From Alphaproteobacteria bacterium (GTDB taxonomy: Bacteria > Pseudomonadota > Alphaproteobacteria > JAIXQD01), in contig OZ251993.1 in assembly GCA_965246895.1 (NCBI GenBank), positions 466,654 through 530,653 on the forward strand: a DNA stretch of 64,000 nt, in the 5' to 3' direction. The notes beneath the pieces are model-generated. The model searched no databases and was not told where the DNA came from. It saw only the letters and a program-made list of their open reading frames with translations. Shown here one piece after another: positions 11,231 to 64,000 of this stretch (its first letter is position 1; each line of letters opens with the position of its first letter). A program made the translations under genes and the position numbers.

Positions 11231-11307
<77 letters not shown>

Positions 11308-11408: not shown

Positions 11409-11529
11409 GAGAAAACCGCAGTTTGTTATGGCAAACTGTTAGTGGCTTTTCGCCGAACAATTCTCTACATGTATTTGTGAACTCACATTAGGTTGTATTC
11501 TAAATTCATATTTGTCTTGGAGTGTTTTG

Positions 11530-44946: not shown

Positions 44947-44948
44947 GC

Positions 44949-48137: not shown

Positions 48138-48138
48138 C

Positions 48139-48864
48139 ATGACGACGAGTCCAAACCTGCAGATCGAGCATATAGCCGCTAGCCAGGCGCAAAAGGAAGT
48201 GACCTGCAATACTGCCTTCGACACGCTGGATCGCTCGCTCTGCGAGGTGCTGTCCAAGGCGATGGCGGATGCTAATCAGACCCTGACAGATGCTGAGGCC
48301 AATAACGCGATCTATATCAAGCTCACAGGGGCGCTCACGGTAGGCCGCACCCTGACGCTGCCTGCCCGCAAGAAGCTGTTCGTCATCGAGAATGCGACCA
48401 CCGGAGCATTTGCGGTCACGGTGAAGTCTGGCGCGGGAGCGACCGTCGCGTTGCCAATGGGGGAGCGCCGGTTTCTCTATAACAACGCGGTCGATGTCAT
48501 GGGGATCACGGCGGGTGGCAGCACCGCGCCTTATGATATCGGCGGCGCTTTGGGCGGTCTGCCGACAGCTTCACAGACGATCCTCCGCTATCCCCTGCCA
48601 CGCGCCGTCAGGTTTTCAGCCGGGTTGCCGTCGAGCCAGGGGCTGTGCGGTACGGCCCCGACGGCAGCCGTGACCTATAGCCTCAAAAAGAACGGCGTCC
48701 AGTTCGCGACTATGCAGTTCGCGGCCAGTGCCACGACCGCCACATTTACGGCAGCTACAGATACGGACTTAGCCGCAGGCGACGTACTGACGCTGACCGC
48801 GCCCGCAACGCCGGACAGCACGCAGGCGGATCTGGCCTTTTCATTCGCAGCCTTACGACTTTAG
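48139..48864 (+). CDS. Tail fibre-associated protein (DUF2793-like N-terminus)
   Basis: SQAQKEVTCNTAFDTLD. Confidence 0.75.
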   Translation: MTTSPNLQIEHIAASQAQKEVTCNTAFDTLDRSLCEVLSKAMADANQTLTDAEANNAIYIKLTGALTVGRTLTLPARKKLFVIENATTGAFAVTVKSGAGATVALPMGERRFLYNNAVDVMGITAGGSTAPYDIGGALGGLPTASQTILRYPLPRAVRFSAGLPSSQGLCGTAPTAAVTYSLKKNGVQFATMQFAASATTATFTAATDTDLAAGDVLTLTAPATPDSTQADLAFSFAALRL

Positions 48865-48873
48865 GAGAAACCC

Positions 48874-49893
48874 ATGGCATTACGGTTTGTAGACGGTTTC
48901 GATCATTACGCAGTTCCGGCCGGAATTCCGGCCAAGTGGAGTTCTTATTACGACACGACGGAATCGAACGGCCTTGCCAGCTATGCAGGGCGGCGGTCAG
49001 GTTCGAACGCCTTGGCGATCCGCGCCTCAGGCGACTTTGTCGGGATCACGCTCGACAGCCAGTCGACCTGGATCGTCGGCTTCGCCATTTATCTCTACGG
49101 CACGGAGACCAACGAACTGATCCGCTTTATCGACGCGGACGGCAATATGCAGCTGCTGATCCAGATCACCAATCAGGGGATCATCCAGCTCTGGCGCGGC
49201 AACTTCAGCACCATGCTGGCGGCCTCGACTTTATCGATGGGCATCACGGCCTGGAATTACATCGAGATCAAATGCACGATTGCCGATAGCGGCGGGCTGT
49301 TCGAAGTACGGATCAATGAAACGGTCTATGTCACCTACACGGGTGACACCAAACAATCCTCGACCCTAAACACTGCCAGCCGCATTCAGTTCATGGGTCG
49401 CAGCAGCGATCTGGCCTTAGACGATCTTTATATCTGCGACGGCACGGGCAGCACGAACAACAACTATCTGGGTGACGTCAGGGTCGATGCCCTGAAGCCG
49501 GTCGGGGCCGGTTTCTATGCGGACTTCAGCCGCTCAACGGGCAGCGCGAATTGGGATAATGTCGATGACGTCACCCCCGATGGCGACGCAACCTACAATT
49601 ACAGCAGCACGGTCGGCAGCAAGGATACCTTCGACTGTGCCAACCTCGTGGCACTGACCGGTTCGATCAAAGGCCTGCAGGCCAACCTCATCGCGCGTAA
49701 GGACGAGGCAGGCGGCAGGGTCTTGAAAGCGGTGCAGCGCATCGGCGGCACGGATTATGAAAGCGCGCCGATTGGTCTTGGCATGTCATATGTCGTGCAG
49801 CGGCAAATCTACGATGTCAGTCCGGCAACTGGCGTGGCCTATACCGAGACCGAGATCAACGCGGCTGAGTTCGGCTACAAGGTTCACAGCTGA
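48874..49893 (+). CDS. Putative virion/receptor-binding protein (lectin-like beta fold)
   Basis: DGFDHY, WNYIEIK and DDLYICDG..YLGD; position in the tail module. Confidence 0.7.
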   Translation: MALRFVDGFDHYAVPAGIPAKWSSYYDTTESNGLASYAGRRSGSNALAIRASGDFVGITLDSQSTWIVGFAIYLYGTETNELIRFIDADGNMQLLIQITNQGIIQLWRGNFSTMLAASTLSMGITAWNYIEIKCTIADSGGLFEVRINETVYVTYTGDTKQSSTLNTASRIQFMGRSSDLALDDLYICDGTGSTNNNYLGDVRVDALKPVGAGFYADFSRSTGSANWDNVDDVTPDGDATYNYSSTVGSKDTFDCANLVALTGSIKGLQANLIARKDEAGGRVLKAVQRIGGTDYESAPIGLGMSYVVQRQIYDVSPATGVAYTETEINAAEFGYKVHS

Positions 49894-50723
49894 TGACAAG
49901 GCTTTACCTCTCAAGGAACGGCCCGACCTACACGCCGCCGACCATACGCGGTGCTTGGGAAGGTACCAGCACCCTCACCCGTGCGCTGCAAACCAAGCCG
50001 GACGAAGCCAGCCAGGGCGAATCTATTGCGGCCTCGAACTACGAAGTCACGACGCTCACCGCCTTCGATGTGATGGTGATCAAGGGCGTGACGGCACCGT
50101 TGGCAGCCGATTATACCTTCGGCGGCACCCTTAACCTCATGATGGCTGTGCAGCAGTCATTCTCTAACTCGTCTAATTCCTACTATCTTCACGCCTATGT
50201 GACGGTCGGGGCCAGCGATGTCGTGCGCGGCACGCTGCTGGCTAATTACTTCGACAGTTCCACCAACGACTGGACGACCACAGCGGCGGCGCGGCCTCTG
50301 CAGACGGCGCAGGCACTGACAGCTGTCGCGGCTCTGGCGGGCGACCGGATTGTCGTCGAGCTGGGTTTCCGCGCCAAGAACGGGTTCAGCTCGCAGCAGT
50401 TCGGTTACATCTATTATAGCGGCGGCGGCGCTGATCTTGTCGCTGGCGGTGCGCCGTCCAGTGGGGTCGGCTATATCGACTTCTCGGACAATTTCACGCT
50501 TGCAGAAAATCAGGTCGTCCGCGTCACCCAGCTTGTCACAGAAGTCGTCCGGCGACCGACGAATACTGCGGCAAGGCTATCGCAGCTGGCGCTGGAAGTC
50601 GTACGGCGGCCTGCGGCACCGCCAGCCCGTATCAGCCAAATGGTCATCGAAGTCGTCAGAAAGAACGGTGTTGCACCGGTAATAACAACCAAGAAAGTGG
50701 CCATGCTTGTCATTGCCACATGA
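49893..50723 (+). CDS. Putative virion protein with three C-terminal repeats
   Basis: AGDRIVVELG; R-x-[TS]-Q-x3-EVVR three times; TGATG coupling. Confidence 0.7.
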   Translation: MTRLYLSRNGPTYTPPTIRGAWEGTSTLTRALQTKPDEASQGESIAASNYEVTTLTAFDVMVIKGVTAPLAADYTFGGTLNLMMAVQQSFSNSSNSYYLHAYVTVGASDVVRGTLLANYFDSSTNDWTTTAAARPLQTAQALTAVAALAGDRIVVELGFRAKNGFSSQQFGYIYYSGGGADLVAGGAPSSGVGYIDFSDNFTLAENQVVRVTQLVTEVVRRPTNTAARLSQLALEVVRRPAAPPARISQMVIEVVRKNGVAPVITTKKVAMLVIAT

Positions 50724-50734
50724 AAGGAGGGATC

Positions 50735-50947
50735 ATGCCCGATCTTGAACGAAGCGTCTGGCGGCTGGAGGCGCAGGTCGAAAACTTAGCCGCCGTGATC
50801 GTCGAACTCAAAACCAAGCTGGAGACCGTCGAAGAGAAGCTGACCGTGCTCGACCGCTGGAAAGGCGGCATGGCGGCGCTGCTAATCGCCAGCGCAGCGG
50901 TCGGCTTCATGATCGATAAGGTCATCGCGCTCTTCGCTAACAAGTAA
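50735..50947 (+). CDS. Small coiled-coil/TM protein, possible holin
   Basis: AGGAGG RBS; coiled coil plus a single TM helix; precedes the endolysin. Confidence 0.55.
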   Translation: MPDLERSVWRLEAQVENLAAVIVELKTKLETVEEKLTVLDRWKGGMAALLIASAAVGFMIDKVIALFANK

Positions 50948-51014
50948 CCCAAATCAACCCTCAAACCCCATCACCGGCCTCGCGCCGGTTTTTTTGTGCC
51001 TGAAAGGAAGTTCA

Positions 51015-51686
51015 ATGACCGTATCTATCACCACCTCAACGCCACGCGGCATCCGTAACAACAATCCCGGCAACCTGCGGAAGACGAACGACCCATGGCA
51101 GGGGTTGAGCCAGCATCAGAACGACGCCGCCTTTTTCCAGTTCGACAATGCCATCTACGGCATCCGGGCTTTGGCGCGGGTGCTGATCAACTATCAGGAT
51201 AAGCACGGCCTGCGCTCGGTTACGCAGATCATCAGCCGCTGGGCACCACCCTCTGAAAACCAGACGGGCGACTATATCAATGCCGTCTGCCAGCGCACCG
51301 GCTTTGCGGCCAACACCCAGCTGGATCTGCATACCGAGGCCAATCTACTGCCGCTGGTCGAAGCCATCATCCGGCATGAGAATGGCCAGCAGCCATACAG
51401 CAAGGCGCAACTGACCAAGGCGCTGGTGCTGGCGGGCGTGGAGCCGCTGGAGCCTGACCTGAAGCAGACCCGCACAGTAAAGGGCGGCAAGGCTGCTGTG
51501 GTCGCTACGGTGGGTGTCGGGGCTATCGAGATCGTCCAGCAGTCGCTCGACCCTGCCAGGGAGGCGCTGGTGGCCATTGCGCCTTACGTCGCGAGCGTTA
51601 AATGGGTGCTGCTGGCGCTGACTCTGATCGGCATCGGTATCATGGTCTGGGCGCGGATCGACGACCGCCGCAAAGGCCTGCGCTGA
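51015..51686 (+). CDS. Putative endolysin (lysozyme-like) with C-terminal membrane segments
   Basis: RGIRNNNPGNLR, RWAPPSEN and IIRHENG; hydrophobic C-terminus. Confidence 0.85.
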   Translation: MTVSITTSTPRGIRNNNPGNLRKTNDPWQGLSQHQNDAAFFQFDNAIYGIRALARVLINYQDKHGLRSVTQIISRWAPPSENQTGDYINAVCQRTGFAANTQLDLHTEANLLPLVEAIIRHENGQQPYSKAQLTKALVLAGVEPLEPDLKQTRTVKGGKAAVVATVGVGAIEIVQQSLDPAREALVAIAPYVASVKWVLLALTLIGIGIMVWARIDDRRKGLR

Positions 51687-51925
51687 TGCTGGCCGTGATC
51701 AAAAGCTGGATCATGGGGAATGCCGTGCGGCTGCTGGGTTATGCCCTGGCAGCCGCTTCGGTCACCGCCGTGATCGTCGGCATTCGTCAGTCGGGCAAAA
51801 ACGCCGTCCGGCTGGATATCCTTAAAAACACATTGGAGGTGAAACATGAGCAACTTCGGGCTGCGGCCAATGCGCCTCGTACTCGCGCTGAGCTTGTTAA
51901 GCGGCTGCAGGACGGTAAGTTCTAG
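51686..51925 (+). CDS. Putative i-spanin (Rz-like)
   Basis: N-terminal TM helix, ends RLQDGKF; TGATG coupling. Confidence 0.7.
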   Translation: MLAVIKSWIMGNAVRLLGYALAAASVTAVIVGIRQSGKNAVRLDILKNTLEVKHEQLRAAANAPRTRAELVKRLQDGKF

Positions 51926-52079
51926 CGCGGGGTCGGACTGTCCGCCTTTGCGAGATTATGACCAGGCTTTCCTGAACCAGCTGGCTGATGAGATCGAGGC
52001 CGCGCCGGTCGATGCGGCTTATCCGATAGCTGTACAGGATTATGCTGGCTTACGAGAGCAGATATGGGCTTGTAAGTGA
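51870..52079 (+). CDS. Putative o-spanin lipoprotein (Rz1-like)
   Basis: MRLVLALSLLSG|C lipobox; overlaps the i-spanin in another frame. Confidence 0.75.
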   Translation: MRLVLALSLLSGCRTVSSSAGSDCPPLRDYDQAFLNQLADEIEAAPVDAAYPIAVQDYAGLREQIWACK

Positions 52080-52133
52080 TTTGATATGCCTTCTGCTTGT
52101 GCTAATTTTTGATGGAAACTCGGAGGCTATTGA

Positions 52134-52943
52134 ATGATACCGCATGTTGACCAGGCAAGAGATTATCTCATACAGCACCTCGCCAATTTACCTGCAGCGC
52201 GAGGGAATTATCATAATAACAATCAGGTAAGAACGCATGGTTGCGATATCTGGATTCCAAATGTCGTGGCTGACTATTATCAGATGACGCAACAAATGCG
52301 TATCTTGGATAACTGGGAAGAGGAAAGATATATACCATTCTATGATGCGGCATGGGAACTATCTCGCATAGGTGTCCTTCGTCCCGCGAGTGTCGCTGCG
52401 TTGGGTATGGGCATGGGCAGCGGTTTTCATGGTGACGGTTATTCGCTAACCGAGTTTGGCAAGACATGGGTGAAGGCAGCCAAAGATAATCTACCACCTC
52501 CAACTGATCCCAGCCGTTACATGGCCCTCTTATCTGGTTTTGAAAACAAGTTGGGACAGGCATTCAAGCAACGGGCGGCAGAAGCCGCACATTGTCACAC
52601 GACGACTAATTATCTGGCCTGCTGTGTAATGGCCGGTGCTGCAGCTGAATCAATCCTACTTGCAGCGGCTATCACCAAGACCAATGATGAATCGAAAGTT
52701 CTAAGCGAATATCGGGGCGCATCGGGTCGTACCCGCGTAACAAATATGTTGATAGGTGCTGCGCCGAAAGGTATCGCCGATCCACTTAAAGCAGGATTGA
52801 ATTTGCTAAGTTACTGGCGCGATGAAGCTGGTCACGGGCAGGCCAGCACGATTAATGAGATTGAAGCGTTTTCTGCTCTTACCCAATTATTGAGGCTGGC
52901 TCAATTCACAGTAGATAATTGGGATACAATAACAGCGCCTTAA
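52134..52943 (+). CDS. Hypothetical protein with C-terminal HEPN-like domain
   Basis: YLACCVMAGAAAE helix and RDEAGH (Rx4H); GGAGG RBS. Confidence 0.65.
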   Translation: MIPHVDQARDYLIQHLANLPAARGNYHNNNQVRTHGCDIWIPNVVADYYQMTQQMRILDNWEEERYIPFYDAAWELSRIGVLRPASVAALGMGMGSGFHGDGYSLTEFGKTWVKAAKDNLPPPTDPSRYMALLSGFENKLGQAFKQRAAEAAHCHTTTNYLACCVMAGAAAESILLAAAITKTNDESKVLSEYRGASGRTRVTNMLIGAAPKGIADPLKAGLNLLSYWRDEAGHGQASTINEIEAFSALTQLLRLAQFTVDNWDTITAP

Positions 52944-53198
52944 CGCTAGCTATCAGCAAATGCAAAAATATGAGACCAGAGCAATCAGGCTCTAATTCCA
53001 CTTTGTCTATAAACTCTCACTATAATTTAGCTGCGATCTAAATAGCTTTTTGGAGCGGCATTAACTGGTTAATTCGCTTAATATACATATTGTTGATAAA
53101 TAATGCTTTTTTGTCTGAATATTAACTAGAAAAGCAAATTTTATTGTTGCAACAAGCTGCCCATAACCGTAAACGATATTATATCGAAACGGATTATT

Positions 53199-55745
53199 AT
53201 GCGGCCTTGTGACCTGCCATCAATATTAGAACTTCCATTTCAACAACGCCGAAAGGCGATTGCGGAGCTATTTCTCAATAGCAATCTAAATTTCGATCAA
53301 GCGATTGAACAAATTGATCTTCTTAGATCCTTAGTAGCTGCAGAAAAACCAAGCGAGTTAGAAAATTTTGAAGACCAAGTTTTGCTGGTTCTTTCATTTA
53401 TGGAGAAAGGATCTGCAAACCAGCGAATTGATTTAAGCACCCCAGAACATGAACTGCTATGGGGGATTAGTCTGGCTGCTGCATTTACCGATGAAAAAAT
53501 TTCTGCTGTCTGGCCTGAAGAAGCAAAAAACCAACCGTTTAGATTGCTGCCAATTGGTAGTCAGTTGTTAGGTACAGATCTATATTCACGTGAGCTGGGT
53601 ATTGCGCAGCTTGAAGCGGCTAGTCTCATCAAAGCTAGAGTTCAGATTAACTGGGCCATACCTCATGAAGGTTATCCAGGACTTGCCTACGCTTACAATT
53701 CTCATCTAGACCGTATTCATCTCGACCCTGTCTGGCACTTAATCATAGGTAGTGAAAACGCTATTGGCGCTGTTGCTCACGAAATTGCCCATGGCATTGG
53801 CACAAGGTCATTCACACCTAAGTTGCAAAAGCTGCATGATCAGCTTGAAGTGATGCAGAAAAAACCACGTAAGGATTGGGGTGAAGACGATTATATTGCA
53901 TTTACCCGAGTCAATGCTGAGTGGTACGTCCGGTTTTTGATATTTGACGAAGCTGAAAATAATTATGCAAATCGCTTTGCGGCAAATCGCACAAGCATGA
54001 TGGCTACAAACTATTCAACAGCTTTAAATTACATCGAGTCGTTGCTTGTAAGCTCGGAGCATGAGCCACCACCAGTTTACGAAATTGATGAAGCTGACAA
54101 ACCTAAGGAAGAAGTTAAAGCAGAAGTTCCTCCGGAATATGCTAAGTACCTTCGCAATATTAAGCGCGTCATCCGCTACAACTTCTTTAAGAATAACGGT
54201 CTAATCGAAGATACGGAAGTCGGTTGGAAATCTGTCAACGTCGATATCGATTTCCTGTATTCCGGTCGTTCAGAGAAGACTGAAGTTTTTGGTAGTGGTG
54301 AAGCTATTCTAGAGAACGTACTTCACACCTGTCACGAATTAGAAAAGACGCAGCCTCAACAACGCGAGAGACTTTTCCTCAGCCCTGAAGCTATGCAGCA
54401 ACGGGCAGATGAATGCTCTGAGGCAAGAAACATTATTATTGATGAATTATTTGACCGTCATCTAAGTCATATTCTTTCTGAACTTGATCGTGATGCTGAG
54501 AATGAAGCAAAAGAATTGCTCGAGCGGGCTGCAGCCGAAGGCATAAACATCGCAGAAACCCAGCCGTCTATTTTTATTCCTGGACTTGGGCGCATCTCTG
54601 TATGTGATCTCCCTCCTGAAAAGCCTGAAGATCTTCGTGTACCTAGTGATGGTATGGGCGAAGAATGCGAGGGCGAGGGGTATGATGGCAAAGCAGAGTC
54701 AAATATTGATCCTGAAATCTGGAAAGAAGATAAGCCGAGCTTTGGTGGCGGTGGCCGAGGGCCAGGTGGCGGTTACTCTGATGCAACGCCAAAACTGCGT
54801 GAATCAACAGGTGATGGTTCTTGGTACAATGCCGTTGTGGCGAAGTATAGCGGGGCGGCTACTGAGGTTGCACGTATGCTACGAGCTATCGAAGAGCGAG
54901 TAATCATTCTTCAAGATGATGAGGTTGATCGCTATAGCCTCTATCCGGAAGACGGCAATCCTAGCCGCATCGATACAGGTACGATCTATAATCGAATGAT
55001 CAAACTCCAGACAGGCCAACCTATAGATGAAAATACGATTTCTCATTTTAAGATTGATCTTCCCGTGAGCCCGGCTTGTCCTCCATCTGATATTGTCATA
55101 GCGGTCGACGGTTCAGGCAGCATGCGCGGGGAGCCGGTTGAAACTGCTATGTCAGCCGGATGTATAGTTCACGCCGGAGCACAGATGCGTGATCGCCGTG
55201 TAAATCTTATTATGATGGGTGAGCCAAAACCTTTGGAAGTTGCTAAGCCAGGTGACTCACCTAGCGAAATTGCGCGACGCATCGAAGCCCTTAAAAAGGG
55301 CGACGGCGGTTCGCGTGACTTTTTATCGCCAGTGGTTAAGTTGGCGCTCGAATTTACGATTAACCAGCGCCGCATAACGAATGAATTGCAAGGCAAAACA
55401 AGTCTGTTTTGTATAAGTGATGGTGGATTTAGTGATGGCCAGCGTGCCTTGCAATCCATGACAGAAATTGCAAAATTATGCCCTGGCTTTAGTTTGGATT
55501 TCATTTTTATCGTAAAAAACTACGAGCCTACTGGTGTGATTAAGCATATTCACGCTTTAAACAGGTCGCCAAGTAAAACGAAAATTGGGTATGTGACTGC
55601 AAAAAAACTATCAGACATACCAGGAGCATTAGTAAAGCTTCTCGATAGTCGCTTGAAAGCTAGTGGGGAAAGTGAAGCGCAGCCTTACTCCCTCAAACGC
55701 AGTCAGTTTATGAGAGCTCATAGTAGAATGAATTGGAGTTTTTGA
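53199..55745 (+). CDS. HExxH metallopeptidase-like domain, acidic/Gly linker and vWA domain
   Basis: AHEIAHG plus downstream DEAENNYAN; MIDAS VDGSGSM and ISDG. Confidence 0.85.
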   Translation: MRPCDLPSILELPFQQRRKAIAELFLNSNLNFDQAIEQIDLLRSLVAAEKPSELENFEDQVLLVLSFMEKGSANQRIDLSTPEHELLWGISLAAAFTDEKISAVWPEEAKNQPFRLLPIGSQLLGTDLYSRELGIAQLEAASLIKARVQINWAIPHEGYPGLAYAYNSHLDRIHLDPVWHLIIGSENAIGAVAHEIAHGIGTRSFTPKLQKLHDQLEVMQKKPRKDWGEDDYIAFTRVNAEWYVRFLIFDEAENNYANRFAANRTSMMATNYSTALNYIESLLVSSEHEPPPVYEIDEADKPKEEVKAEVPPEYAKYLRNIKRVIRYNFFKNNGLIEDTEVGWKSVNVDIDFLYSGRSEKTEVFGSGEAILENVLHTCHELEKTQPQQRERLFLSPEAMQQRADECSEARNIIIDELFDRHLSHILSELDRDAENEAKELLERAAAEGINIAETQPSIFIPGLGRISVCDLPPEKPEDLRVPSDGMGEECEGEGYDGKAESNIDPEIWKEDKPSFGGGGRGPGGGYSDATPKLRESTGDGSWYNAVVAKYSGAATEVARMLRAIEERVIILQDDEVDRYSLYPEDGNPSRIDTGTIYNRMIKLQTGQPIDENTISHFKIDLPVSPACPPSDIVIAVDGSGSMRGEPVETAMSAGCIVHAGAQMRDRRVNLIMMGEPKPLEVAKPGDSPSEIARRIEALKKGDGGSRDFLSPVVKLALEFTINQRRITNELQGKTSLFCISDGGFSDGQRALQSMTEIAKLCPGFSLDFIFIVKNYEPTGVIKHIHALNRSPSKTKIGYVTAKKLSDIPGALVKLLDSRLKASGESEAQPYSLKRSQFMRAHSRMNWSF

Positions 55746-58423
55746 TGATAAATAAGACCATTAAGTTCGGCGGCCCTGCAACGCCAATTCCTACTTATGA
55801 TCCTAAGACAGGTCATGTTGGCGCTCTATGTAGCTATAGAAGTGAGATCAATTTTGTCACTTTTCGAGACGATATTAGTCGCAGCGGCTCTATGCAAATC
55901 CAAGGCGATGATGACCGTATTACGGCTAATGAAGCGCTGTATGCCGATCTCATTCGCAATTTGCCTTCCCGGCAAATGCTGCCGCACCTTATCCATGAAC
56001 TGACTGAGCGCGATCCGACTCGTACAGATTGGAATAAAAGAAGCATGGTCTGCCGATACGAAGGGCCGCCTTCCATTGGTAAAAGTTTTCTTATCAAAGC
56101 CCTCGGCAAGCTAACTCACCCTAAGGGTGTTTTGTATCTAAATTGTAAAGACGTCGATATGGGCGTTCTTTTCTGTGAAACTGTGTTCGACACAAGCGCA
56201 GCCAATACAGAGAAAGCAGCTATTGATGCCCGCGTATTGCAAGGTAATGCTGGCAGTGAAGGTGGCCTAAAGCCTGAAAGTCGTATCCTACTCAAACAGA
56301 TTTTGGGCTCTGCATATATTGAAGACGAGCTAGGCGACTCGGTGTTGACCTCGATTGACTGGAACGGAATTCAGGTCAAAGGCAATAGTATTGAAGAGCA
56401 AGCCTATCAAGAGCAGGTTGTGCGTGAGGCTATCAAACAGGTTTGCGAGTTAGAAGGCATTCGAACAAACTCAGGTTTGAGCCAAATCGGCATTACGACA
56501 CGGGACGGCATGGCTGTTCGTGCAGCTGATCCGACTTCAGCAGACTATTGCAGGCCAATTCTTTTAGACGAGTTAATGCGGTGCAAGCATGGCACTGACC
56601 AGAAGCTATTTGAGTGGGTTGCCATGCTGTCAGATCCACTAGTGGACTATGTTGAAGTGATAGCCGGTAAGAACCGGCATGTGCGTCTTTATCGCCGTGA
56701 TCTACCAGCGACCTACCGTGTCAACATTACGGATAATCCTAATGTGCGCGGTATGGGCAGTGCAAGCATGAGCAAGCCACTTAAATCGCGCTTGGGATTT
56801 GAACTTGATGACAGGATTGTGCCAGATCCTGGCTTGCCAGATTATGCAGATCGTATCGCCCAATTCCTAACTGGCTTCGGTGCGTTACAAGTTTATTATG
56901 CAGGGAAGGAGTTTTTTGATGCCCATCCCAGCAGCTTGCGTCAGTTAGCTACAAATTATTTGCGAGCTGGAAAAACAGACGCTGCAATCAGCCGCATTTC
57001 CAATGAAGATCTTACCAATATTGAAAATATCGAGTCTGTCATTGAGCTTAGTGAACAGCTGGGCCGCTTCTTTGCCGACCTAAAACCCATGTTCAATCCA
57101 AATTCCACATTTCATCAGCAGCAGGGGACATCGGTAAGTCACGCTTACGAAGATTATCTTAGCAGCGTCGAGATTGATTTGCGGCTCGTTACAAAGTTAT
57201 TAGAAAAAGCGCTAACTGATGCACCAATACCTTCAAGTCCAGCCAAAGCGAATTTTTCTTCGGCTTTTCAGTTCGGCATTGATTCCGGTAAGTCTGCTAA
57301 GGCAGAGCCAGCACCAAATCGCGGCTTAAGACTTGAAAATTATATTGTTGGATGGCTTGAGCGTGTATTTGTACCAGCGGATGCTGATTTGCGTGGCATC
57401 AATAAAGACGAGTGCAAGAAGCTTCTAGATATTGCCTTAAAAGCGGCAGCCAACTGCGGCATTGGTGATCCAGAGCTACGTGAAGCCGACAAAGGCGATG
57501 TAAAAAGAATTTGCGATCTTTACGATTTCAACCCTTACGCGGGACCGATGGGAACACTGCTTGTTGTTAGAGACATCGTCGTTGGCAAGGTGCGTGAACA
57601 GTACGCCGAATTGCAGGAGGCGAATGACCAGCTTCCCAATTTGCCGGAAGATAACGAGAAAATACTCTCTACTTTGGAGCTAGAGCAGGCATTAGACCAT
57701 GTTGCCCGTTTGGAGAATATTTCACGGGCAAACCAGCCTTCGTCCATCGTACTTCCAAACTTTAATCCCGACGACTTTATGGCTTCGCCCTTTAGCGCAT
57801 GTATTGTCAACGATACAGCGCAAGCTGGCGCAGGTATGACTGATACGCCGATAGATAAGGATGCTTTATTAATCGGCCTGGCTCACCCTAAACTGCGAGA
57901 TCAGTCTGTAGCAGCTTTATTTAGCAAAACACTCGTGAGCCGTGCAGACCTAGCGCAGTCAGATCCTGCAATCCAAGTTAGTGCTAAACAGTCGGATACT
58001 GGTTTCGGTCTAACCAGCTGCAAAGTTCTGAACGGGGATACTGAAGAAACGCTTCATCTATTTTCTGCGAAAGATGGAGCGCTGTTAGTCGTTGGTGGCC
58101 AGATTAATGAAATGACCGCTAATTTGCTAAGAGCTTGCCGCGTTACTTATGCTGAGCGTGGGAGCGCCAATGCCGAGAGAGTTATTGATGGTTGGGCTGA
58201 GGGAGCCTTCAAACAACAGGACGTTCTTTCAAGCCGTGCGGAAACCGATGCTCTATTGAAGCGTGCTTTCATCTTGCGTAACGGCAATGCCGGTGACGAA
58301 GAGGCGCTGCTTGCTTTACCCCTTCCTGAACTTGTTTTTAATGAAAAATCCGTGCCTATCCGCCCCGTAGTGGTAATTCACCAGAATGCCAACCGGGCAT
58401 TAGCAGCAATGAGTAGAGGTTGA
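55745..58423 (+). CDS. Large MoxR/dynein-like AAA+ ATPase
   Basis: Walker A GPPSIGKS, Walker B ILLDE, TDNP sensor, MSKPLKSR Arg finger; TGATG coupling. Confidence 0.82.
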   Translation: MINKTIKFGGPATPIPTYDPKTGHVGALCSYRSEINFVTFRDDISRSGSMQIQGDDDRITANEALYADLIRNLPSRQMLPHLIHELTERDPTRTDWNKRSMVCRYEGPPSIGKSFLIKALGKLTHPKGVLYLNCKDVDMGVLFCETVFDTSAANTEKAAIDARVLQGNAGSEGGLKPESRILLKQILGSAYIEDELGDSVLTSIDWNGIQVKGNSIEEQAYQEQVVREAIKQVCELEGIRTNSGLSQIGITTRDGMAVRAADPTSADYCRPILLDELMRCKHGTDQKLFEWVAMLSDPLVDYVEVIAGKNRHVRLYRRDLPATYRVNITDNPNVRGMGSASMSKPLKSRLGFELDDRIVPDPGLPDYADRIAQFLTGFGALQVYYAGKEFFDAHPSSLRQLATNYLRAGKTDAAISRISNEDLTNIENIESVIELSEQLGRFFADLKPMFNPNSTFHQQQGTSVSHAYEDYLSSVEIDLRLVTKLLEKALTDAPIPSSPAKANFSSAFQFGIDSGKSAKAEPAPNRGLRLENYIVGWLERVFVPADADLRGINKDECKKLLDIALKAAANCGIGDPELREADKGDVKRICDLYDFNPYAGPMGTLLVVRDIVVGKVREQYAELQEANDQLPNLPEDNEKILSTLELEQALDHVARLENISRANQPSSIVLPNFNPDDFMASPFSACIVNDTAQAGAGMTDTPIDKDALLIGLAHPKLRDQSVAALFSKTLVSRADLAQSDPAIQVSAKQSDTGFGLTSCKVLNGDTEETLHLFSAKDGALLVVGGQINEMTANLLRACRVTYAERGSANAERVIDGWAEGAFKQQDVLSSRAETDALLKRAFILRNGNAGDEEALLALPLPELVFNEKSVPIRPVVVIHQNANRALAAMSRG

Positions 58424-58424
58424 T

Positions 58425-58700
58425 ATGCAAGATGTAATCTCATCCTTACTTGATTTGGCCATAAATCAAAGCGCCGATGCTTTAGAAGGTTCAGATGGGC
58501 GCGTAAGATTTGTGGCTGGATGGCGAGCCGCATTGTTACGGAGTAAATGCCAGGTTGCGACAACACTCGGAGGGTTTGAGCAAGCCTTAGAAGAGGGCGC
58601 TAAAGAAATATTTGTGCCTGTCCGTGCTTTCGGAATAACGGCTATTCGAAGAATTATGGATCGCGTTCAAAGTGACGCAATTATTTACGTGGAGCAATAA
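58425..58700 (+). CDS. Small hypothetical protein
   Basis: GAGG RBS; fits exactly between its neighbours. Confidence 0.75.
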   Translation: MQDVISSLLDLAINQSADALEGSDGRVRFVAGWRAALLRSKCQVATTLGGFEQALEEGAKEIFVPVRAFGITAIRRIMDRVQSDAIIYVEQ

Positions 58701-60182
58701 ATGTCTTTGAGTCCAGCCAAAAAAAGCATTTTGAACATAAACGCTAATGGGCAAATGGATGCCATCATTACTTGTGCGAAGCGCAAAAAGCCCTTGAGAG
58801 GTATTACGGCTCAGCTGAATGGTATTGGCCAGCCTCTTTCACTAGGTGATTTTGCAACAGCAAATGGCCCTTTAGGCCAGCTGATGTTTAAGCGTGGTCA
58901 AAAGCAGGATTCTGCTATCGATATCATCGATCAGATCCTTACTGAGCTTGCGGAAATAGACGAACTGCCATCTTTTCACGATTGGGTGAGCACCAGAAAT
59001 TCTGAGTATTCCTTGATGGAGTGGGCGACGAAACGTAAGGTGCTGGCTAAAATATTTCAACCACAGTTCTGGGCCGGACGTACTGATCAGATGAATTTAC
59101 TCTGGAATCAAATACCAGAACGCGGGCAGCAGCAAGTTAAAGACTTTTTTCGGCATGTTGCAGAAGCCGAAGGGTTGGGAGATAAGTCTGGCCAACAGAA
59201 AGTAAATGTATCACCTTCAGGACTCTTCGTGCCGAATAATGAAGGTGCAATTCCAGCTGATGATATTCGTGTTTGGCGAAATCTTCAGGACGTAATCGAC
59301 GATGCACCTGTAATTGTGGAAAGCCCAATCATAACCCATGACCATATGGTTCGCCGGGGCAGAGTTCGGGCTAGTTATATAGAATTGGCTTATGCAGCAG
59401 GCGCCTTGCCTGTAGTTCAAAAGTATCTACGTGAGCACGACAGGCCTTTGACTAGAGGCAGCATCGCGCAGGCCGGAATGGGGCATGTTCTAAAAGAAAT
59501 AGATACGGCCTTTATAAATTACTGTCGTCTAGGCAACACTGGAGCTGTTAGTAATTTAATCGAAGCAAAAATTGTTGATTTTGGAGCCATAACTGATCGA
59601 GAAACGCAGCCTGCACCTATTGCTGCTGCTACAGCGGGCCATGCTGAAGTCTTAGATCTATGCTATAGTAATGGTGCTGATCCTGATCTTACATGTGCTG
59701 GTAAGGGGACGCTTACTGCGCTTTGGCAAGCCGCGAGACACAACCGCCCTGCCGCCGTTAGCTCTATTGTACGTGCCCTTAAGGAGAAGCATGCCAATGA
59801 TCCGGTAGCTTATTTGGATTCGCTCCATGCTACTCATGACTCATTAACGCCTCTTGGGGCTGCGAAGAAGCATTCAAATGCAGATACCACGGCAGCGCTG
59901 TCAGATACCTTAATAAAGGCTGCCGAGGCCGTGGCTACATTACCAATAGAGAAGCTTCTGGAAGGACATGAGCAATCTCAAGGCGCTCTTTTTGCTTTGA
60001 AGCGACTTAAAATGCTTCCAGATTTGTTTAGGCCCGGTCTTTGGGTTGGTAATGTACAGGCTATGCAAAATATTGCTGAGATTGTTACTCCGGCTGAAGT
60101 CGACTCACAATTGATTGCAGCTGGTAGGCCATCATTTGGAACTTTAATGACAATCGTTAACGCTCAAACGTTGAAGCGGTGA
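58701..60182 (+). CDS. Ankyrin-repeat-like protein
   Basis: AAATAGHAEVL..GADPD, TALWQAARHN and TPLGAA motifs. Confidence 0.75.
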   Translation: MSLSPAKKSILNINANGQMDAIITCAKRKKPLRGITAQLNGIGQPLSLGDFATANGPLGQLMFKRGQKQDSAIDIIDQILTELAEIDELPSFHDWVSTRNSEYSLMEWATKRKVLAKIFQPQFWAGRTDQMNLLWNQIPERGQQQVKDFFRHVAEAEGLGDKSGQQKVNVSPSGLFVPNNEGAIPADDIRVWRNLQDVIDDAPVIVESPIITHDHMVRRGRVRASYIELAYAAGALPVVQKYLREHDRPLTRGSIAQAGMGHVLKEIDTAFINYCRLGNTGAVSNLIEAKIVDFGAITDRETQPAPIAAATAGHAEVLDLCYSNGADPDLTCAGKGTLTALWQAARHNRPAAVSSIVRALKEKHANDPVAYLDSLHATHDSLTPLGAAKKHSNADTTAALSDTLIKAAEAVATLPIEKLLEGHEQSQGALFALKRLKMLPDLFRPGLWVGNVQAMQNIAEIVTPAEVDSQLIAAGRPSFGTLMTIVNAQTLKR

Positions 60183-61562
60183 ATTTACAAAATCCTCTAA
60201 AGCAGCTTTTGCATATCTGATTCTGCTTCCAACTTTTGTATAGGTAGGCCCAACACCTCTCCAGCGCCAATTATCCAGCAGTCGTCGAGTAACCCCTAGA
60301 TGTTTAGCTGCCTGTTCTGGCGTAACATGAAAGAGGCGAGTATTGTTCTGATCTGTAAGCTCGGAGATTATTTCGACGTATTCGGTTTTGTCACTGTTGC
60401 TCGCGATTTGAAGAAATTGCCCCATCTCGTCATTCACTTTGGTAGCAGCTTCGACTGCAGGGTGAATTGCAAGGTGAGCATATCGGGCCGTGGTCTGGGT
60501 TTGCGAATGGCCTAGGATTTTACCAATAATAGGTAGGCTCAGCCCCATATTTACTGCGCTAGATGCAAAGGTGTGTCTAAGGTCATGCAAACGAACATCA
60601 TTTAATTTTGCCCAACTACGAACATGACGCCACGCTTTCTGCATGTTGACGTAGGCCGATCCAATCGTGAGGTTTGAACATATTACATGTGGGTTGCCTT
60701 CAGTGCGGGGTAGATCCTGCAATATTGAAACAGCTGTTCTACCGAGAGGGATGACTTTAGCGCCTGTTTTAGAGTCAGGCAGACGTATAAGAGCCTTATC
60801 AAGTTCAACCCATTCCCATTTGCAGTATTGGATTTCCCCTAAACGTGCGCCGGTTAATACCAGAAGCCGTATGCAAGCGATTGCATAGATTGAGAGAAGC
60901 TGCTTGTCTTCTGCATTATTTAAAGCCTCGCCTAAACGGCGTAGCTCGTCCGGGGTAAGGTACCGCTCACGCTTGTTTTCTTTAAATTTTTTGAGATGCC
61001 TACATGGATTTGTGCCATCGGGTCGCCAGCCCCAGAGTTCAGCCAGATTGAACATTTTCGAGCATACCTCAATAATTCTGTTCGCATTGATTTTGCGGGC
61101 AGAGTTAGCCTGCTGAATGTTGGCTATATCGCTTTTCGTGACCTCCGCCACTTTCAAATGACTCATGGCGGGCAGAATAAACGCATTTAAGATGCGCTTA
61201 TAATTAACCATCGTCTTAGGTTTTACATGATGGGCACAATGTTCATCCAAGTATCGGTCACTAAGCTCCTTTACAGTCGGGGCGGCTCGGTGGGCTAGTT
61301 TGTCACCTGCAGGGTCTTCACCATTGCGAGCGGCAGCTAACAATGTGGCAGCCTTGAGCCGTGCATCTTCCGCTGTAAAATGGGTGTAGTGGCCAATCGT
61401 ATATCGGCGGGTTTTGGCTCCGTGCCGATATTGAATGAAATAGATTTTACGACCCGTGGGAAACACTCTAACCCCAAAGCCAGGGATCTCTGAATCCACA
61501 ATCTGGTACTCTTTCTCTTTGGGCTGTAAAGCTTCAACCGTTCGTTTTGTAAGTTTAGGCAC
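60144..61562 (-). CDS. int: Tyrosine integrase with N-terminal arm-binding domain and extra C-terminal excisionase-like HTH
   Basis: GFGVRV arm domain; TGARLGE, HDLRH, LGH and TTARY catalytic motifs. Confidence 0.95.
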   Translation of the reverse strand: MPKLTKRTVEALQPKEKEYQIVDSEIPGFGVRVFPTGRKIYFIQYRHGAKTRRYTIGHYTHFTAEDARLKAATLLAAARNGEDPAGDKLAHRAAPTVKELSDRYLDEHCAHHVKPKTMVNYKRILNAFILPAMSHLKVAEVTKSDIANIQQANSARKINANRIIEVCSKMFNLAELWGWRPDGTNPCRHLKKFKENKRERYLTPDELRRLGEALNNAEDKQLLSIYAIACIRLLVLTGARLGEIQYCKWEWVELDKALIRLPDSKTGAKVIPLGRTAVSILQDLPRTEGNPHVICSNLTIGSAYVNMQKAWRHVRSWAKLNDVRLHDLRHTFASSAVNMGLSLPIIGKILGHSQTQTTARYAHLAIHPAVEAATKVNDEMGQFLQIASNSDKTEYVEIISELTDQNNTRLFHVTPEQAAKHLGVTRRLLDNWRWRGVGPTYTKVGSRIRYAKAALEDFVNSPLQRLSVNDCH

Positions 61563-61581
61563 TGCTTCCTTCCAATTCCTG

Positions 61582-61609
61582 TTTACGGACGCATACTGGA
61601 CGCACGAGG
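61582..61609 (+). repeat. Putative integrase arm-type site, right copy
   Basis: 28-bp identity with 11381-11408. Confidence 0.8.
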
Positions 61610-61734
61610 AAGCAAACCAGTGGCAAAACAGGCTAATTAGACGATTGCTTCACGGTGCAGTGAAGTCAACTAAACTATTGAAATATAAAAGAGAATGGGG
61701 TCGTGTATTGCTGTTGAGGGTTCCACTAGACCTA

Positions 61735-61780
61735 GCTCATAACCTGAAGGCCGCAGGTTCAAATCCTGCCCCCGCAACCA
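61735..61780 (+). repeat. attR core (displaced 3' half of tRNA-fMet)
   Basis: GCTCATAACCTGAAGGCCGCAGGTTCAAATCCTGCCCCCGCAACCA with no tRNA 5' half upstream. Confidence 0.92.
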
Positions 61781-61783
61781 GTT

Positions 61784-61808
61784 AGCCCGCTTTTTAGCGG
61801 GCTTTTTT
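61784..61808 (+). terminator. Intrinsic terminator, probably the displaced rrn operon terminator
   Basis: AGCCCGCT-TTTT-AGCGGGCT-TTTTT directly after attR. Confidence 0.85.
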
Positions 61809-61908
61809 GTGCCTAGTGTATTATTCAATAAAACATATCATATTATTCACGGTAACGTAACGATAATACCCTATCGTTGGCTTGGAACAGCTAACCTTTG
61901 GGATTTAG

Positions 61909-64000
61909 ATGACTTTTTTTGCGCGCCTTATAGTTGCTGCCTATTTTGTCTGCTGTGCACCAGCCTTTGCCTCAAACCTGATTGGTACTGGCAAGCTGGC
62001 GCGCACGCCGATTGTGACTATTAGCGAGATTGTTGTAAGCGACGATAGCGTCGCGCCGGGTGATAAGCTGACCTTGAGCCTTACCCTTACGTCTGACCAG
62101 ACTACACGCCCTGGCATCATCGCATTTCTAATCATGAATGAAAAAGATCGTGTGGTTAATCAAGCTTTAGTGGCTTTTAGTAAGCTCGAGGCCGGTAAGC
62201 CGTTCACGGCTACGCAGCAGATGGTTATCGGTAAAGACTATCCTGACGGCAGCTATGCAATCAGGGTTAGTAGTGCGGGCAGTAATTTTAGCTTCTGGAA
62301 ACTTAAACAAAACGCGTTTCGGGTTTCGCGCATTGTTGAATCTGCTTGTGGCAAAAGTCACAATGGCTCTTTTGTCGCCGCGCCTGCAACTGATCTGTGT
62401 GCTGCAGGTCAAGCCAGCGGCGTTAGCTTGCAGGGTGCTGATTTCATATGGTCTTGTACAAATGCAATCGGCCTTTCTGTCAATTGCAAAGCCAGCAAGT
62501 TAGTACCGGTTGATAGTGTTTGCGGCGCCGCGAATGGCACATTACGTACGACAAGACCAAGCGATAATGAGCTTTGCGCCGTTGGTAACACCTCGCCTCT
62601 AACACTTGATGCTGGAGGTAATTTTCACTGGTCTTGCTTTGGGCTGAACGGCGGTACGGATCATGACTGTGCGGCTGCGATACAGCCGCCCGTGACCTAT
62701 GGGTGGGCAGTTGGAGCCTATGGTGAATATAGTAGTTGTAGCGGTGGCAAACAGGCCCGTACACGTAGCGTACAATGCATGGGATCTGATCAAAAGGTGG
62801 CTGCTGACAGCAAGTGCGGCGGTGAACGGCCGATTGCCGAAGACACGCGCGCTTGCGCAACCCCGATCGACGGTCAATGCGGGCCTAGCAATACTGTTTC
62901 TGACACCATTGGCACGCCATCTAGCAGCCCCTACACTTGCTTATCCGGCCAAATCGCTAACCTTAAAGTGGGAACAGATATCGCGACCTGGACCTGTTTA
63001 GGCCAGAACGGGGGGGCTGATACAGCGTGCAAGGCCAAAGTTGCTGCGGGTATTGATATTGCAAGTCTATTAGGGCCGATGAGCATCCCCCCTTCGAATG
63101 TGCCTGATGTGGTGGGCGCTTTCCGGTTCTTGTGCGGGCCAGGTCAAGTGTTGCCTGACGATCCGATTGTTTATCCAGGCCAACCTGGCAGAGCGCATTT
63201 GCATCAATTCTTCGGCAATCTAGGCGCCAATGCTAATTCTACATACGAAAGCCTTCGTGCTAGTGGTGATAGCACCTGCATGAACGAGCTCAATCGCTCG
63301 GCATACTGGATGCCAGCGATGCTGGATGGTAGGGGCAATGTCGTGCGGCCTGATAACGTATCGGTCTACTATAAACGCCGCCCCAAATCAGATCCATTCT
63401 GCACAACAGCTGCGGACGGCTGCGTCGATATTCCCCGTGGGCTACGCCTGATCTTCGGGTGGGATCAAACGCAACCAACTGTACCACAGCCAGAGAACGT
63501 GTCGCATTTCAACTTTAAATGCGTTGCTAATTTCCATCCAACCACAGCGGCTTTCGCTAATATGGTTGAACCGCTAAAAGATTGCAAAGTGGGGCAACAA
63601 TTGGTCGGCGTGATTCAAACGCCGGTATGCTGGGATGGCCATAATCTTGACAGCCCGGATCACCGCAGTCATGTCGTTGATATGATCCGCGACGGAACGA
63701 CAAATTGGCAGTCTCAATGCCCTGCCACCCATCCAAAGCTGCTGCCGCAATTCACGATGGGCGTGCAATGGACAATTGGTGCTGAGGACGACCCAACTAA
63801 ATGGACGCTTTCCAGCGATCACATGAAGCCTGGCGCGCTTCCTGGCGAGACCTTCCATTCCGACTATTTTGAAGGATGGGAGGAAAGCATCCGAGCACGC
63901 TGGCATGCTGGGTGTATTGACCATCTGCTAAACTGTTCGGACGGTGACCTGGGTGACGGACAAATCATGACGCGTGGTAAATTCTATCCATCTGGCCCGG
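61909..64000 (+). CDS. Secreted protein with Cys-rich repeats, TSP1-like module and DUF1996 domain; runs off the window
   Basis: Translated by hand (absent from the ORF track): signal MTFFARLIVAAYFVCCAPAFA; DDPIVYPGQPGRAHLHQFFGN, NRSAYW, CWDGHNLDSPDHRSH, FHSDYFEGW. Confidence 0.88.
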   Translation, partial: MTFFARLIVAAYFVCCAPAFASNLIGTGKLARTPIVTISEIVVSDDSVAPGDKLTLSLTLTSDQTTRPGIIAFLIMNEKDRVVNQALVAFSKLEAGKPFTATQQMVIGKDYPDGSYAIRVSSAGSNFSFWKLKQNAFRVSRIVESACGKSHNGSFVAAPATDLCAAGQASGVSLQGADFIWSCTNAIGLSVNCKASKLVPVDSVCGAANGTLRTTRPSDNELCAVGNTSPLTLDAGGNFHWSCFGLNGGTDHDCAAAIQPPVTYGWAVGAYGEYSSCSGGKQARTRSVQCMGSDQKVAADSKCGGERPIAEDTRACATPIDGQCGPSNTVSDTIGTPSSSPYTCLSGQIANLKVGTDIATWTCLGQNGGADTACKAKVAAGIDIASLLGPMSIPPSNVPDVVGAFRFLCGPGQVLPDDPIVYPGQPGRAHLHQFFGNLGANANSTYESLRASGDSTCMNELNRSAYWMPAMLDGRGNVVRPDNVSVYYKRRPKSDPFCTTAADGCVDIPRGLRLIFGWDQTQPTVPQPENVSHFNFKCVANFHPTTAAFANMVEPLKDCKVGQQLVGVIQTPVCWDGHNLDSPDHRSHVVDMIRDGTTNWQSQCPATHPKLLPQFTMGVQWTIGAEDDPTKWTLSSDHMKPGALPGETFHSDYFEGWEESIRARWHAGCIDHLLNCSDGDLGDGQIMTRGKFYPSGP

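Follow-up and report, generated by a model that had tools for sequence, protein, structure and literature searches.

A prophage-borne MoxR–vWA module with ankyrin and leucine-rich-repeat proteins as candidate clients in an alphaproteobacterium

What is the task of a compact, low-GC block of four genes that lies between the lysis genes and the integrase of an alphaproteobacterial prophage? The block was found in a window of 64,000 nucleotides (the whole stretch of DNA analysed here; assembly GCA_965246895.1, contig OZ251993.1, positions 466,654 to 530,653 of the forward strand), and it consists of four abutting, co-oriented open reading frames (ORFs) on the + strand, g1 to g4, which encode 848, 892, 91 and 493 amino acids (Table 1). 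A previous description made from the letters and their translations, hereafter the sequence-only reading, had seen in it a peptidase–vWA protein, an AAA+ ATPase, a small protein and an ankyrin-like protein of no named system, acting in defence or host interaction. Our analyses suggest that g1 and g2 form a MoxR–vWA machine dedicated to g4-type proteins with ankyrin (ANK) or leucine-rich repeats (LRR) as its clients, and that the four genes are a self-contained accessory module, taken up in this genome as cargo by a temperate phage. We put the probability of this reading, which is the best explanation of the whole, at roughly 0.55. The MoxR–vWA core of the module is well supported, and the observations behind it are the predicted folds, the intact catalytic motifs, the linkage of the genes and their co-occurrence at the genome level.

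The motor of the module would be g2. In VIA-align, its AlphaFold2 (AF2) model (predicted local distance difference test, pLDDT, 81) superposes best on CbbQ2 (Z 15.6, root-mean-square deviation (rmsd) 3.4, 256/267 aligned) and NorQ (Z 15.5, 251/254 aligned), and the next AAA+ protein, ClpB NBD2, follows about 3 Z lower, at Z 12.5. Foldseek placed HslU first (E 1.3e-4), with NorQ at 6.3e-3, and returned only generic AAA+ or MoxR-like matches among viral models. In HslU, too, the Walker motifs are separated by an inserted domain; the insert of g2, at about residues 150-250, shows a conservation of 0.67-0.68. The Walker A residues G107, P109, G112, K113 and S114 and the Walker B residues D275 and E276 are invariant in 30/30 sequences, the alignment comprising the window protein and 29 relatives out of 36 hits, six short or partial ones having been dropped. 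On this structural evidence g2 is an AAA+ ATPase of the MoxR class, with intact catalytic motifs and predicted activity. Its 35 relatives (32-55% identity) are unnamed, and the six rows with an organism label all read Alphaproteobacteria metagenome-assembled genome (MAG). AAA_5 matches weakly in 14/30 of the aligned g2 sequences (best E 3.7e-4), and a g2 profile run against the PDB brought up nothing beyond the P-loop of a designed ATPase (E 0.31). No PHROG or PADLOC model matches g2, NCBIfam offers nothing meaningful, and an Atlas search with the C-terminal half gave no usable match. Some relatives (L032 9881-11860, P0018, P0030 and P0033) are 530-660 residues long and stop near residue 596 of the window's g2; they are either forms that lack the C-terminal half or broken genes.

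The partner protein, g1, was modelled by AF2 at pLDDT 77. [quoted passage not shown] The NorD alignment, at rmsd 10.4, is weaker than its Z suggests; Foldseek gives NorD an E of 1.4e-5. The MIDAS residues D637, S639, S641 and S740-D741 are conserved, the DxSxS motif being invariant in 16/16 and, in the larger set, in 21/21 relatives. Judged from the model, the vWA domain of g1 is closer to those coupled to AAA+ ATPases than to the integrin type. At the sequence level, the CobT vWA domain was the only significant PDB match of g1 (E 6.6e-4), and single-sequence searches of the PDB with g1 or with g2 gave nothing usable. Among 16 g1 relatives scanned with Pfam, CobT_C matched weakly in seven and the CobT N-domain PF06213 in none at E<=1; an Atlas search with the N-domain of g1 returned unnamed clusters and a weak lead to a cluster of CobT N-domains (score 0.90, rank 27). 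The linker between the two domains differs in length among relatives.

The N-terminal domain of g1 carries the motif HEIAH within a helix (residues 185-201) that follows three predicted strands (149-152, 164-167 and 172-175), and the domain may be zincin-like, as judged by the motif and the order of secondary-structure elements only. The HExxH pattern is kept in 17/21 relatives. E253, in DEAENNYAN, stands 55 residues past H198 and is kept in 21/21, which makes it a candidate third zinc ligand. No Pfam peptidase family matched any of the 16 scanned relatives at E<=1. These results bear out much of what the sequence-only reading had proposed for the two large proteins, namely a vWA domain, its fusion to an HExxH domain, a MoxR-type AAA+ partner (CbbQ2 and NorQ being the best matches of g2, and the Rea1 and NorD vWA domains those of g1), a large insert between the Walker motifs and a long C-terminal half (residues 600-892) without a match.

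The genes travel together. Related loci numbered 25, of which 15 came from species genomes, six were more distant loci from a search of the class and four were metagenomic; near-duplicates are possible among them, L034 having the same hit coordinates as L007, and loci L017-L024 were replaced by the longer L025-L031, except for G041. g1 adjoins g2 in 24 of the 25, and the 25th is cut inside g2. In the species genomes g1 stands directly 5' of g2 in 15/15 loci, and a g4-family gene lies 3' of g2 in 14/15, in arrays of up to seven paralogues (L007). Across all 25, a g3-like ORF, found directly after g2 with a hidden Markov model (HMM), and an ORF with the g4 module described below are each present in 17. 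Since the four-gene arrangement recurs in related loci, it is not a product of chance; four-gene co-occurrence was a check named by the sequence-only reading. Identity to the window proteins becomes lower on the way from motor to client (g2 26-48%, g1 26-33%, g3 14-24%, g4 12-25%), a gradient that we take as support for a motor with diversifying clients.

The linkage extends to whole genomes. In one even draw of 401 genomes from the class, the window's own genome (G000) included, g2 was matched in nine, or in 8/400 without the unpublished G041. The g4 module occurs in 3/9 of the g2-positive genomes and in 0/392 of the g2-negative ones; these counts are not independent because of kinship among the genomes. 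One 2.3-Mb genome (G329) holds a single g1-g2 pair and 12 module ORFs spread over six contigs (C41, C43, C11, C22, C61 and C45), so module genes occur away from the operon too. In the window's order, one of two genomes has g2. The patchy distribution (9/401), flanks that vary with lineage, being conserved only inside close lineages, and the cargo position in a prophage mark the module as accessory.

This distribution bears on a housekeeping role, in which the pair would be an assembly or metal-insertion chaperone of the NorQD, CbbQO or CobST type, acting on an enzyme encoded elsewhere, with the ANK/LRR proteins as mere neighbours. The nearest solved structures (CbbQ, NorQ and NorD), the best sequence match (the CobT vWA) and the setting of the module amid ordinary chromosomal genes in MAGs all fit such a role. 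However, we consider it improbable, given a module present in so few genomes of the class and in half of the order sample, borne by a prophage, unlike the host in its base composition, linked to the g4 family at both the locus and the genome level, and accompanied by no conserved enzyme gene across lineages.

The proteins encoded 3' of g2 in related loci have only their C-terminal ~90 residues in common. Outside this module, LRR_6 was found in 9/27 and ankyrin repeats in 2/27 of the g4 relatives, the family alignment holding 27 of 30 cluster members (three cut at locus ends were dropped) and the module alignment 26 rows (two without the module dropped, L028 added). Among 1.84 billion proteins, a profile of the module retrieved 378 cluster representatives with a threshold of E<=1e-3, of which 177 also reach E<=1e-10. 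In 147 of the 150 representatives listed, the module is present once in 68, twice in 15, three times in 59 and four times in five, and in 133/147 the C-terminus of the protein lies within 25 residues of where the last copy stops. The only recurrent Pfam families in 98 of the 150 are Ank_2 (13 proteins, best E 2.5e-29) and LRR_6 (seven), and no enzymatic domain recurs among these 98. The module itself has no match in the Pfam library used, which is without PF27087, a label listed for three g4-like proteins. A word-indexed homologue search, subject to the limit of its index, returned 10 proteins only for the module alignment and the query alone for g1 residues 1-480.

In the window's own genome the module is confined to g4, which carries two copies. 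The ankyrin-like character that the sequence-only reading had given to g4 holds in so far as Ank_2 matches, but the match stays below the family cut-off (Table 1), and the larger ANK/LRR family with a common repeat module, to which g4 belongs, had been missed. The C-terminal residue of the module proteins P0047-P0193 is arginine in 45/147 and proline in 33/147, and many operon-linked module proteins end in a basic tail followed by x-R; such an end may be a recognition tag. The g3 family has conserved W33, P65 and R80 in its alignment, and the window's g3 has no match in Pfam, NCBIfam, PHROG or PADLOC. We propose that g3 is a small conserved accessory subunit of the g1-g2 machine.

A possible mechanism can be modelled on NorQ/NorD, CbbQ/CbbO and Rea1. 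According to the sections of the relevant papers that treat these machines, the vWA domain docks on the ATPase ring, with a finger that enters the pore in NorD; the MIDAS face, and sometimes the N-domain, holds the target; and ATP hydrolysis is relayed by the adaptor to remodel that target (PMC13036017, PMC9976466, PMC7159879). By analogy, a g2 hexamer would bind one g1 through the vWA domain, and a g4-type protein would be gripped, by its conserved module, at the vWA MIDAS face and/or the HExxH N-domain. ATP hydrolysis would be relayed through the vWA domain and the acidic linker, so as to remodel the client. Where the HExxH motif is intact, cleavage of the client, or of a protein bound to it, would perhaps follow; the domain would be a processing peptidase, or a binding domain in the clade without the histidines. 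The ANK/LRR part of the client would provide specificity for another protein. The g4-type proteins are taken as targets because of this analogy and because of their linkage at the locus and genome levels. A complex prediction of full-length g1 with the C-terminal module of g4 scored 0.01, which is evidence neither way.

Several points weigh against this assignment of roles. Who binds whom, whether anything is proteolysed and what the biological purpose is are our inferences. No acidic residue is invariant in the g4 module, and therefore no MIDAS ligand can be named. The HExxH motif is lost in 4/21 relatives, which form one clade (L001, L002, L003 and L005) with RExxN, RExxY or RExxH in its place; because these four lack the histidines, the protease effector of the sequence-only reading is weakened. 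The fold searches with g1 used the full-length model, and their matches were filled by the vWA domain; likewise, the fold comparison of g2 was made with the full-length model. At E<=0.1 no Pfam family at all, those of the AAA class included, matched the window's g2. The g3 HMM was built from nine loci that were then counted, with six further loci detected, all at the expected position. Finally, the g4 module was undetected in 6/9 of the g2-positive genomes, and other ORFs lie downstream of g2 in L026, L027 and L030. The clients, therefore, have either diverged beyond detection or are not obligatory.

As to its purpose, a conflict function, either in defence or in the interaction with another organism, is most likely rather than housekeeping, because the module is mobile, patchy, diversifying and placed as prophage cargo. 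A defence role is plausible on these grounds. Its specific form, an anti-phage system of the MoxR–vWA ternary type acting by abortive infection or superinfection exclusion, would be a special case of the client machine and is, in our estimate, a possibility to be held tentatively. Here the ANK/LRR proteins would sense phage proteins, the threshold would be set by the MoxR–vWA pair, and cleavage of host or phage proteins by the g1 HExxH domain would be the effector step. The cargo slot between lysis genes and integrase, the tandem, diverged LRR/ANK paralogues and the patchy distribution fit this proposal, and its theme is that of the MoxR–vWA ternary conflict systems in the sections of PMC7159879 that describe them. 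In one related locus (L028), an OLD/GajA/AriA-like ATPase gene (3766-5631, - strand; PADLOC AriA E 2.9e-26, GajA 8.9e-26, HEC-01A 8.7e-23) is located some 450 bp upstream from the g1 homologue; an ORF of 81 residues stands in between. In PADLOC, g0, the ORF ahead of g1 in the window, matches the candidate HEC-01B weakly (E 7.7e-4).

On the other hand, the neighbourhoods give little support to a defence island. A Pfam scan of ten neighbours found aminopeptidase N, a transglycosylase-domain protein, a cadherin/RTX protein, an SLT transglycosylase, a hybrid histidine kinase, DUF1287, a weak DUF2939, a weak DUF6161, an ankyrin protein and one unmatched protein; a PADLOC scan of ten, one of them shared with the Pfam set, gave the OLD/GajA/AriA-like ATPase, one ankyrin protein and eight blanks. 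Defence-type genes thus make up 1/19 of the distinct neighbours in related loci, the rest being housekeeping, ankyrin or unmatched. No model of PADLOC-DB 2.0 matches g1, g2 or g3, and the match of g4 to the candidate PDC-M72A is restricted to the ankyrin region (E 0.0013). NCBIfam and PHROGs yielded nothing for g0 to g4. Relatives of g1 or g2 are absent from 50,697 phage records (for g1 even at E<=1) and from IMG/VR, and the clade without the HExxH histidines fits poorly with cleavage as the common output. The claim that the block belongs to no named system therefore stands by the PADLOC check that had been suggested for it, and the defence reading stays plausible but has little backing from neighbours and none from phage collections. 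A more elaborate and somewhat less probable proposal is a bacterial immune system of an undescribed kind. In it, arrays of diversified LRR/ANK receptors would be read out by a MoxR motor and a vWA adaptor instead of a STAND/NLR ATPase, the zincin would execute the response, and the copy captured by the phage would guard the lysogen.

The other face of a conflict function concerns how the bacterium interacts with prey or a eukaryotic host. On this view the ANK/LRR proteins would be eukaryote-like effectors or adhesive factors, carried in a lysogenic-conversion cassette of the prophage, and the MoxR–vWA–zincin machine would fold, mature or release them. No known domains other than ANK and RNI-type LRR recur in the g4 family, relatives occur in MAGs labelled Micavibrio, Bdellovibrionales and animal-gut Alphaproteobacteria, the nine positive genomes of the class sample are all 1.7-2.4 Mb in size, and further ankyrin genes lie nearby in L005, L006, L007 and L027. 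However, no stretch of g1 to g4 exceeds a KD19 of 1.34, and they show no signal peptide or membrane segment; all four are therefore probably cytoplasmic. No VirB4-type secretion ATPase was found in the window's genome (the control was positive in Caulobacter), where only three ORFs match Ank_2. The g4 family shows no recurrent enzymatic effector domain, and none of the ten Pfam-scanned neighbours is a secretion gene. We regard this role as rather unlikely, less so than housekeeping.

The client machine, in the reading that we prefer, is carried here as cargo of a temperate phage, and the sequence-only reading proved right in the layout of the block. The junctions are tight, as it had described: a TGATG overlap joins g1 to g2 (55743-55747), a 1-bp gap separates g2 from g3, and g3 abuts g4 with a gap of 0 bp; the ORF list also offers a TTG at 55733 as an alternative start of g2, upstream of the ATG. 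The AT-richness that had been noted is clear from the GC contents of the genes (g1 0.449, g2 0.475, g3 0.457, g4 0.466) against those of the tail gene (0.62) and the endolysin (0.612), and from 1-kb windows of 0.40-0.49 over 52500-61999 against 0.58-0.64 over 44000-51999; the genome has 0.549 and the integrase 0.467. The block also occupies the cargo slot that had been recognised between the lysis genes and the integrase. That description was without g0 and the spacer of 255 bp between the lysis genes and g1. The spacer is presumably the promoter region of g1, judging by its position and composition; scans for promoters and terminators gave counts no higher than in shuffled sequence. g0 has no Pfam, PHROG or NCBIfam match and no relatives in loci L001-L015 or L026-L035.

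Run X1 offered two observations on the block. One contig (depth 4.2, side 30) joins 51994 to 53163 and skips g0, which hints weakly at g0 being a cassette that can be separated. Contigs of depth 5-6, compared with about 19-22 otherwise, carry many substitutions in g1 and g2, at 54536-55085 and 56077-56137, which suggests a second, diverged allele of the module within the run.

Table 1. Features of the four-gene block and of the prophage around it, in positions of the window
Feature	Position	Strand	Details
Terminase large subunit	27158-29041		PHROGs
Tape measure	37815-40364		PHROGs
Tail protein	44949-48137		PHROGs
Fibre	48139-48864		PHROGs
Endolysin	50994-51686		PHROGs
g0	52134-52943		269-aa ORF in the same low-GC block, 255 bp ahead of g1
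Spacer 5' of g1	52944-53198	+	AT-rich, GC 0.33, 255 bp
g1	53199-55745	+	848 aa
g1 N-terminal domain	53199-54608	+	aa 1-470, mostly helical (AF2)
g1 HExxH motif HEIAH	53778-53792	+	aa 194-198
g1 linker	54609-54818	+	aa 471-540, disordered, acidic, Gly/Pro-rich; pLDDT <50 over 481-540
g1 vWA domain, Rea1/NorD type	54819-55742	+	aa 541-848
g1 MIDAS DxSxS	55107-55121	+	aa 637-641; invariant 21/21
g2	55745-58423	+	892 aa, counted from the ATG within the TGATG overlap
g2 AAA+ module	55937-57472	+	aa 65-576, with ~100-aa insert between Walker motifs
g2 Walker A GPPSIGKS	56063-56086	+	aa 107-114
g2 Walker B LLDE	56561-56572	+	aa 273-276
g2 C-terminal half	57542-58420	+	aa 600-892; alpha/beta; column conservation 0.34-0.50
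g3	58425-58700	+	91 aa
g4	58701-60182	+	493 aa
g4 module copy 1	58992-59144	+	aa 98-148; hmmsearch domain E 8.5e-6
g4 ankyrin-like repeats	59622-59894	+	aa 308-398; Ank_2 E 2.3e-5, 25.3 bits (cut-off 27.3)
g4 module copy 2, C-terminal	59958-60179	+	aa 420-493; hmmsearch domain E 2.3e-17
Tyrosine integrase	60144-61562	-	C-terminal helix-turn-helix; converges on g4, 39-nt overlap
att-like right boundary	61735-61780	+	46-nt copy of the tRNA-Met(CAT) 3' end, 93% identical to 11262-11307
Terminator-like hairpin	61784-61803		3' of the tRNA-Met fragment (terminator scan)

The prophage ends behind the integrase, which is identified by Phage_integrase (E 9.9e-23), Arm-DNA-bind_3 (2e-16) and Phage_int_SAM_3 (3.1e-10) in Pfam and by phrog_1 (E 7.3e-66). 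The tRNA-Met fragment at the right end has a sole direct-repeat partner, 11262-11307, in the first of two tRNA-Met(CAT) genes (11231-11307 and 13914-13990) that are 91% identical, oppositely oriented and 2.6 kb apart. A second repeat, of 43 nt and 91% identity, pairs 11375-11417, just downstream of the first tRNA-Met, with 61576-61618, between the start of the integrase and the fragment. The left attachment site is left unplaced because the DNA at 11.5-20 kb is core chromosome, with a PEP-utilising enzyme and a class I W/Y tRNA synthetase that has only a 34% paralogue elsewhere. A separate island with no relation to the phage was also considered and rejected, as no second integrase was found in the scanned parts of the prophage (a minority of the ORFs of 20-62 kb); since the integrase shares the GC of the block, the idea keeps some probability. 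Elsewhere in the prophage, the ORF at 23950-25176 fuses a ParB-N domain to an N6/N4 DNA methylase (Pfam E 8.1e-28 and 1.9e-10). Just outside the element, a large ORF at 61909-63999, open at the window end, has a DUF1996 match (E 1.8e-38), a hydrophobic N-terminus and cysteine-rich repeats.

Residence in a prophage could also mean that the block serves the phage itself, as a morphogenesis chaperone or protease like the MoxR–vWA pair of Acidianus two-tailed virus or the one predicted in jumbo phages. MoxR with a metallopeptidase–vWA partner is described for group 2.2 jumbo phages in the section of PMC7824862 on them, and in one genome of the class a decayed g1-g2 pair adjoins a terminase gene close to that of the prophage. 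However, the block has a GC of 0.45-0.48 against 0.61-0.62 in the structural genes, lies after the lysis genes and next to the integrase, and has no g1 or g2 match in the phage collections given above. Moreover, when five prophage proteins were compared with the 25 loci, the terminase, in L030, was the single match. We consider this role highly improbable.

The locus with that terminase was observed at about 545000-554000 of G089:C1 (L030, L036-L038), in a complete genome of 1.9 Mb that belongs to the window's class. The terminase large-subunit gene is 79% identical to that of the window, and it adjoins a diverged g1 (25% identity) and a g2 from which the first ~240 residues, with Walker A among them, are missing. 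The locus further has a portal fragment and one head gene, and no other structural gene of this phage was found within the 79 kb searched. The locus looks like a decayed remnant of a related association of phage and module.

MoxR–vWA pairs are widespread, and few of them have a known client. In the present case the likely clients are encoded beside the motor and marked by a conserved module, in numbers from one to at least 12 per genome. As the clients are adjacent and marked in this way, and as all four proteins are predicted to be soluble, the target of the motor and its contact surface are directly testable. If the role in defence is true, the module would couple an LRR/ANK receptor layer to a MoxR motor, in parallel to NLR-type immunity. 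If the role towards a host or prey is true, it would define a route by which eukaryote-like repeat proteins mature in Alphaproteobacteria with small genomes, which are little studied. In either case, g2, g3 and the g4 module, three families that match nothing in Pfam, NCBIfam, PHROGs or PADLOC, would gain a context.

Among known systems, one close comparison is with NorQ/NorD, whose task is the insertion of iron into nitric oxide reductase. The NorQ fold and the NorD vWA domain (Z 15.5 and 15.8) resemble those of the adjacent g2 and g1, and like NorD g1 is built from an N-domain, a disordered linker and a C-terminal vWA domain with an intact MIDAS. This layout, with an acidic linker, is given for NorD in the relevant sections of PMC9976466 and PMC13036017. 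However, no sequence similarity of NorQ or NorD to g2 or g1 was detected; g2 is three times longer than NorQ, with its insert of ~100 residues and a C-terminal half of ~300, the N-domain of g1 has the HExxH motif, and the candidate clients are repeat proteins rather than an enzyme, in a module that is patchy and mobile. The Rubisco activase CbbQ/CbbO offers the best structural match of g2 and, in CbbO, a large adaptor with a C-terminal vWA domain, but there is no Rubisco context here, and the differences of g2 in size and insert are those seen with NorQ. Rea1/MDN1 gives the best match of the g1 vWA domain and has a dynein-like AAA ring, in line with the weak matches of g2 relatives to the dynein-related AAA_5, and its clients are pulled through a small conserved ubiquitin-like (UBL) domain. 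It differs in being a single eukaryotic chain with six AAA modules, and the conserved part of g4 is not demonstrably UBL-like.

CobS/CobT resembles the pair in the CobT vWA domain and its acidic linker, but no CobN or cobalamin context is present here and PF06213 is unmatched. CobT is not known to carry an HExxH motif. The jumbo-phage pair described by Iyer et al. (2021, PMC7824862), in the section that proposes a role in virion assembly, is alike in joining a MoxR ATPase to a phage-carried vWA protein with an N-terminal metallopeptidase domain. It differs in that the present block lies in a cargo region rather than a morphogenesis region, has two further conserved partners and matches nothing in the phage records searched.

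In their general plan, the vWA–MoxR–VMAP conflict systems (Kaur et al. 2020, PMC7159879) resemble the module. As described in the sections of that paper on the ternary systems, the vWA protein often comes with a peptidase, and in the third protein a conserved C-terminal domain is joined to a part that varies. The present module likewise combines a MoxR–vWA couple with such a third protein, is patchy, and has a third partner that diverges fastest. Judged by that description, VMAP-C is an alpha+beta domain of about seven strands and six to seven helices, whereas the g4 module is much smaller, at ~90 residues, and is repeated up to four times per protein; no Pfam match to VMAP-C was obtained in g4, 27 relatives or 98 representatives, with the presence of a VMAP-C model in the library unconfirmed. 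Further differences are that no VMAP, iSTAND, FtsH or beta-propeller partner was seen here, that the peptidase is of the HExxH type, and that the hosts are small-genome Alphaproteobacteria as opposed to the multicellular lineages named in those sections. Our literature search found no description of a MoxR–vWA pair combined with ANK/LRR proteins, the supplementary tables of the papers, which may list such loci, being outside that search. To conclude, the block is a genuine, conserved module of four genes, a MoxR–vWA machine with a variable third partner, a known general kind of system in a new form.

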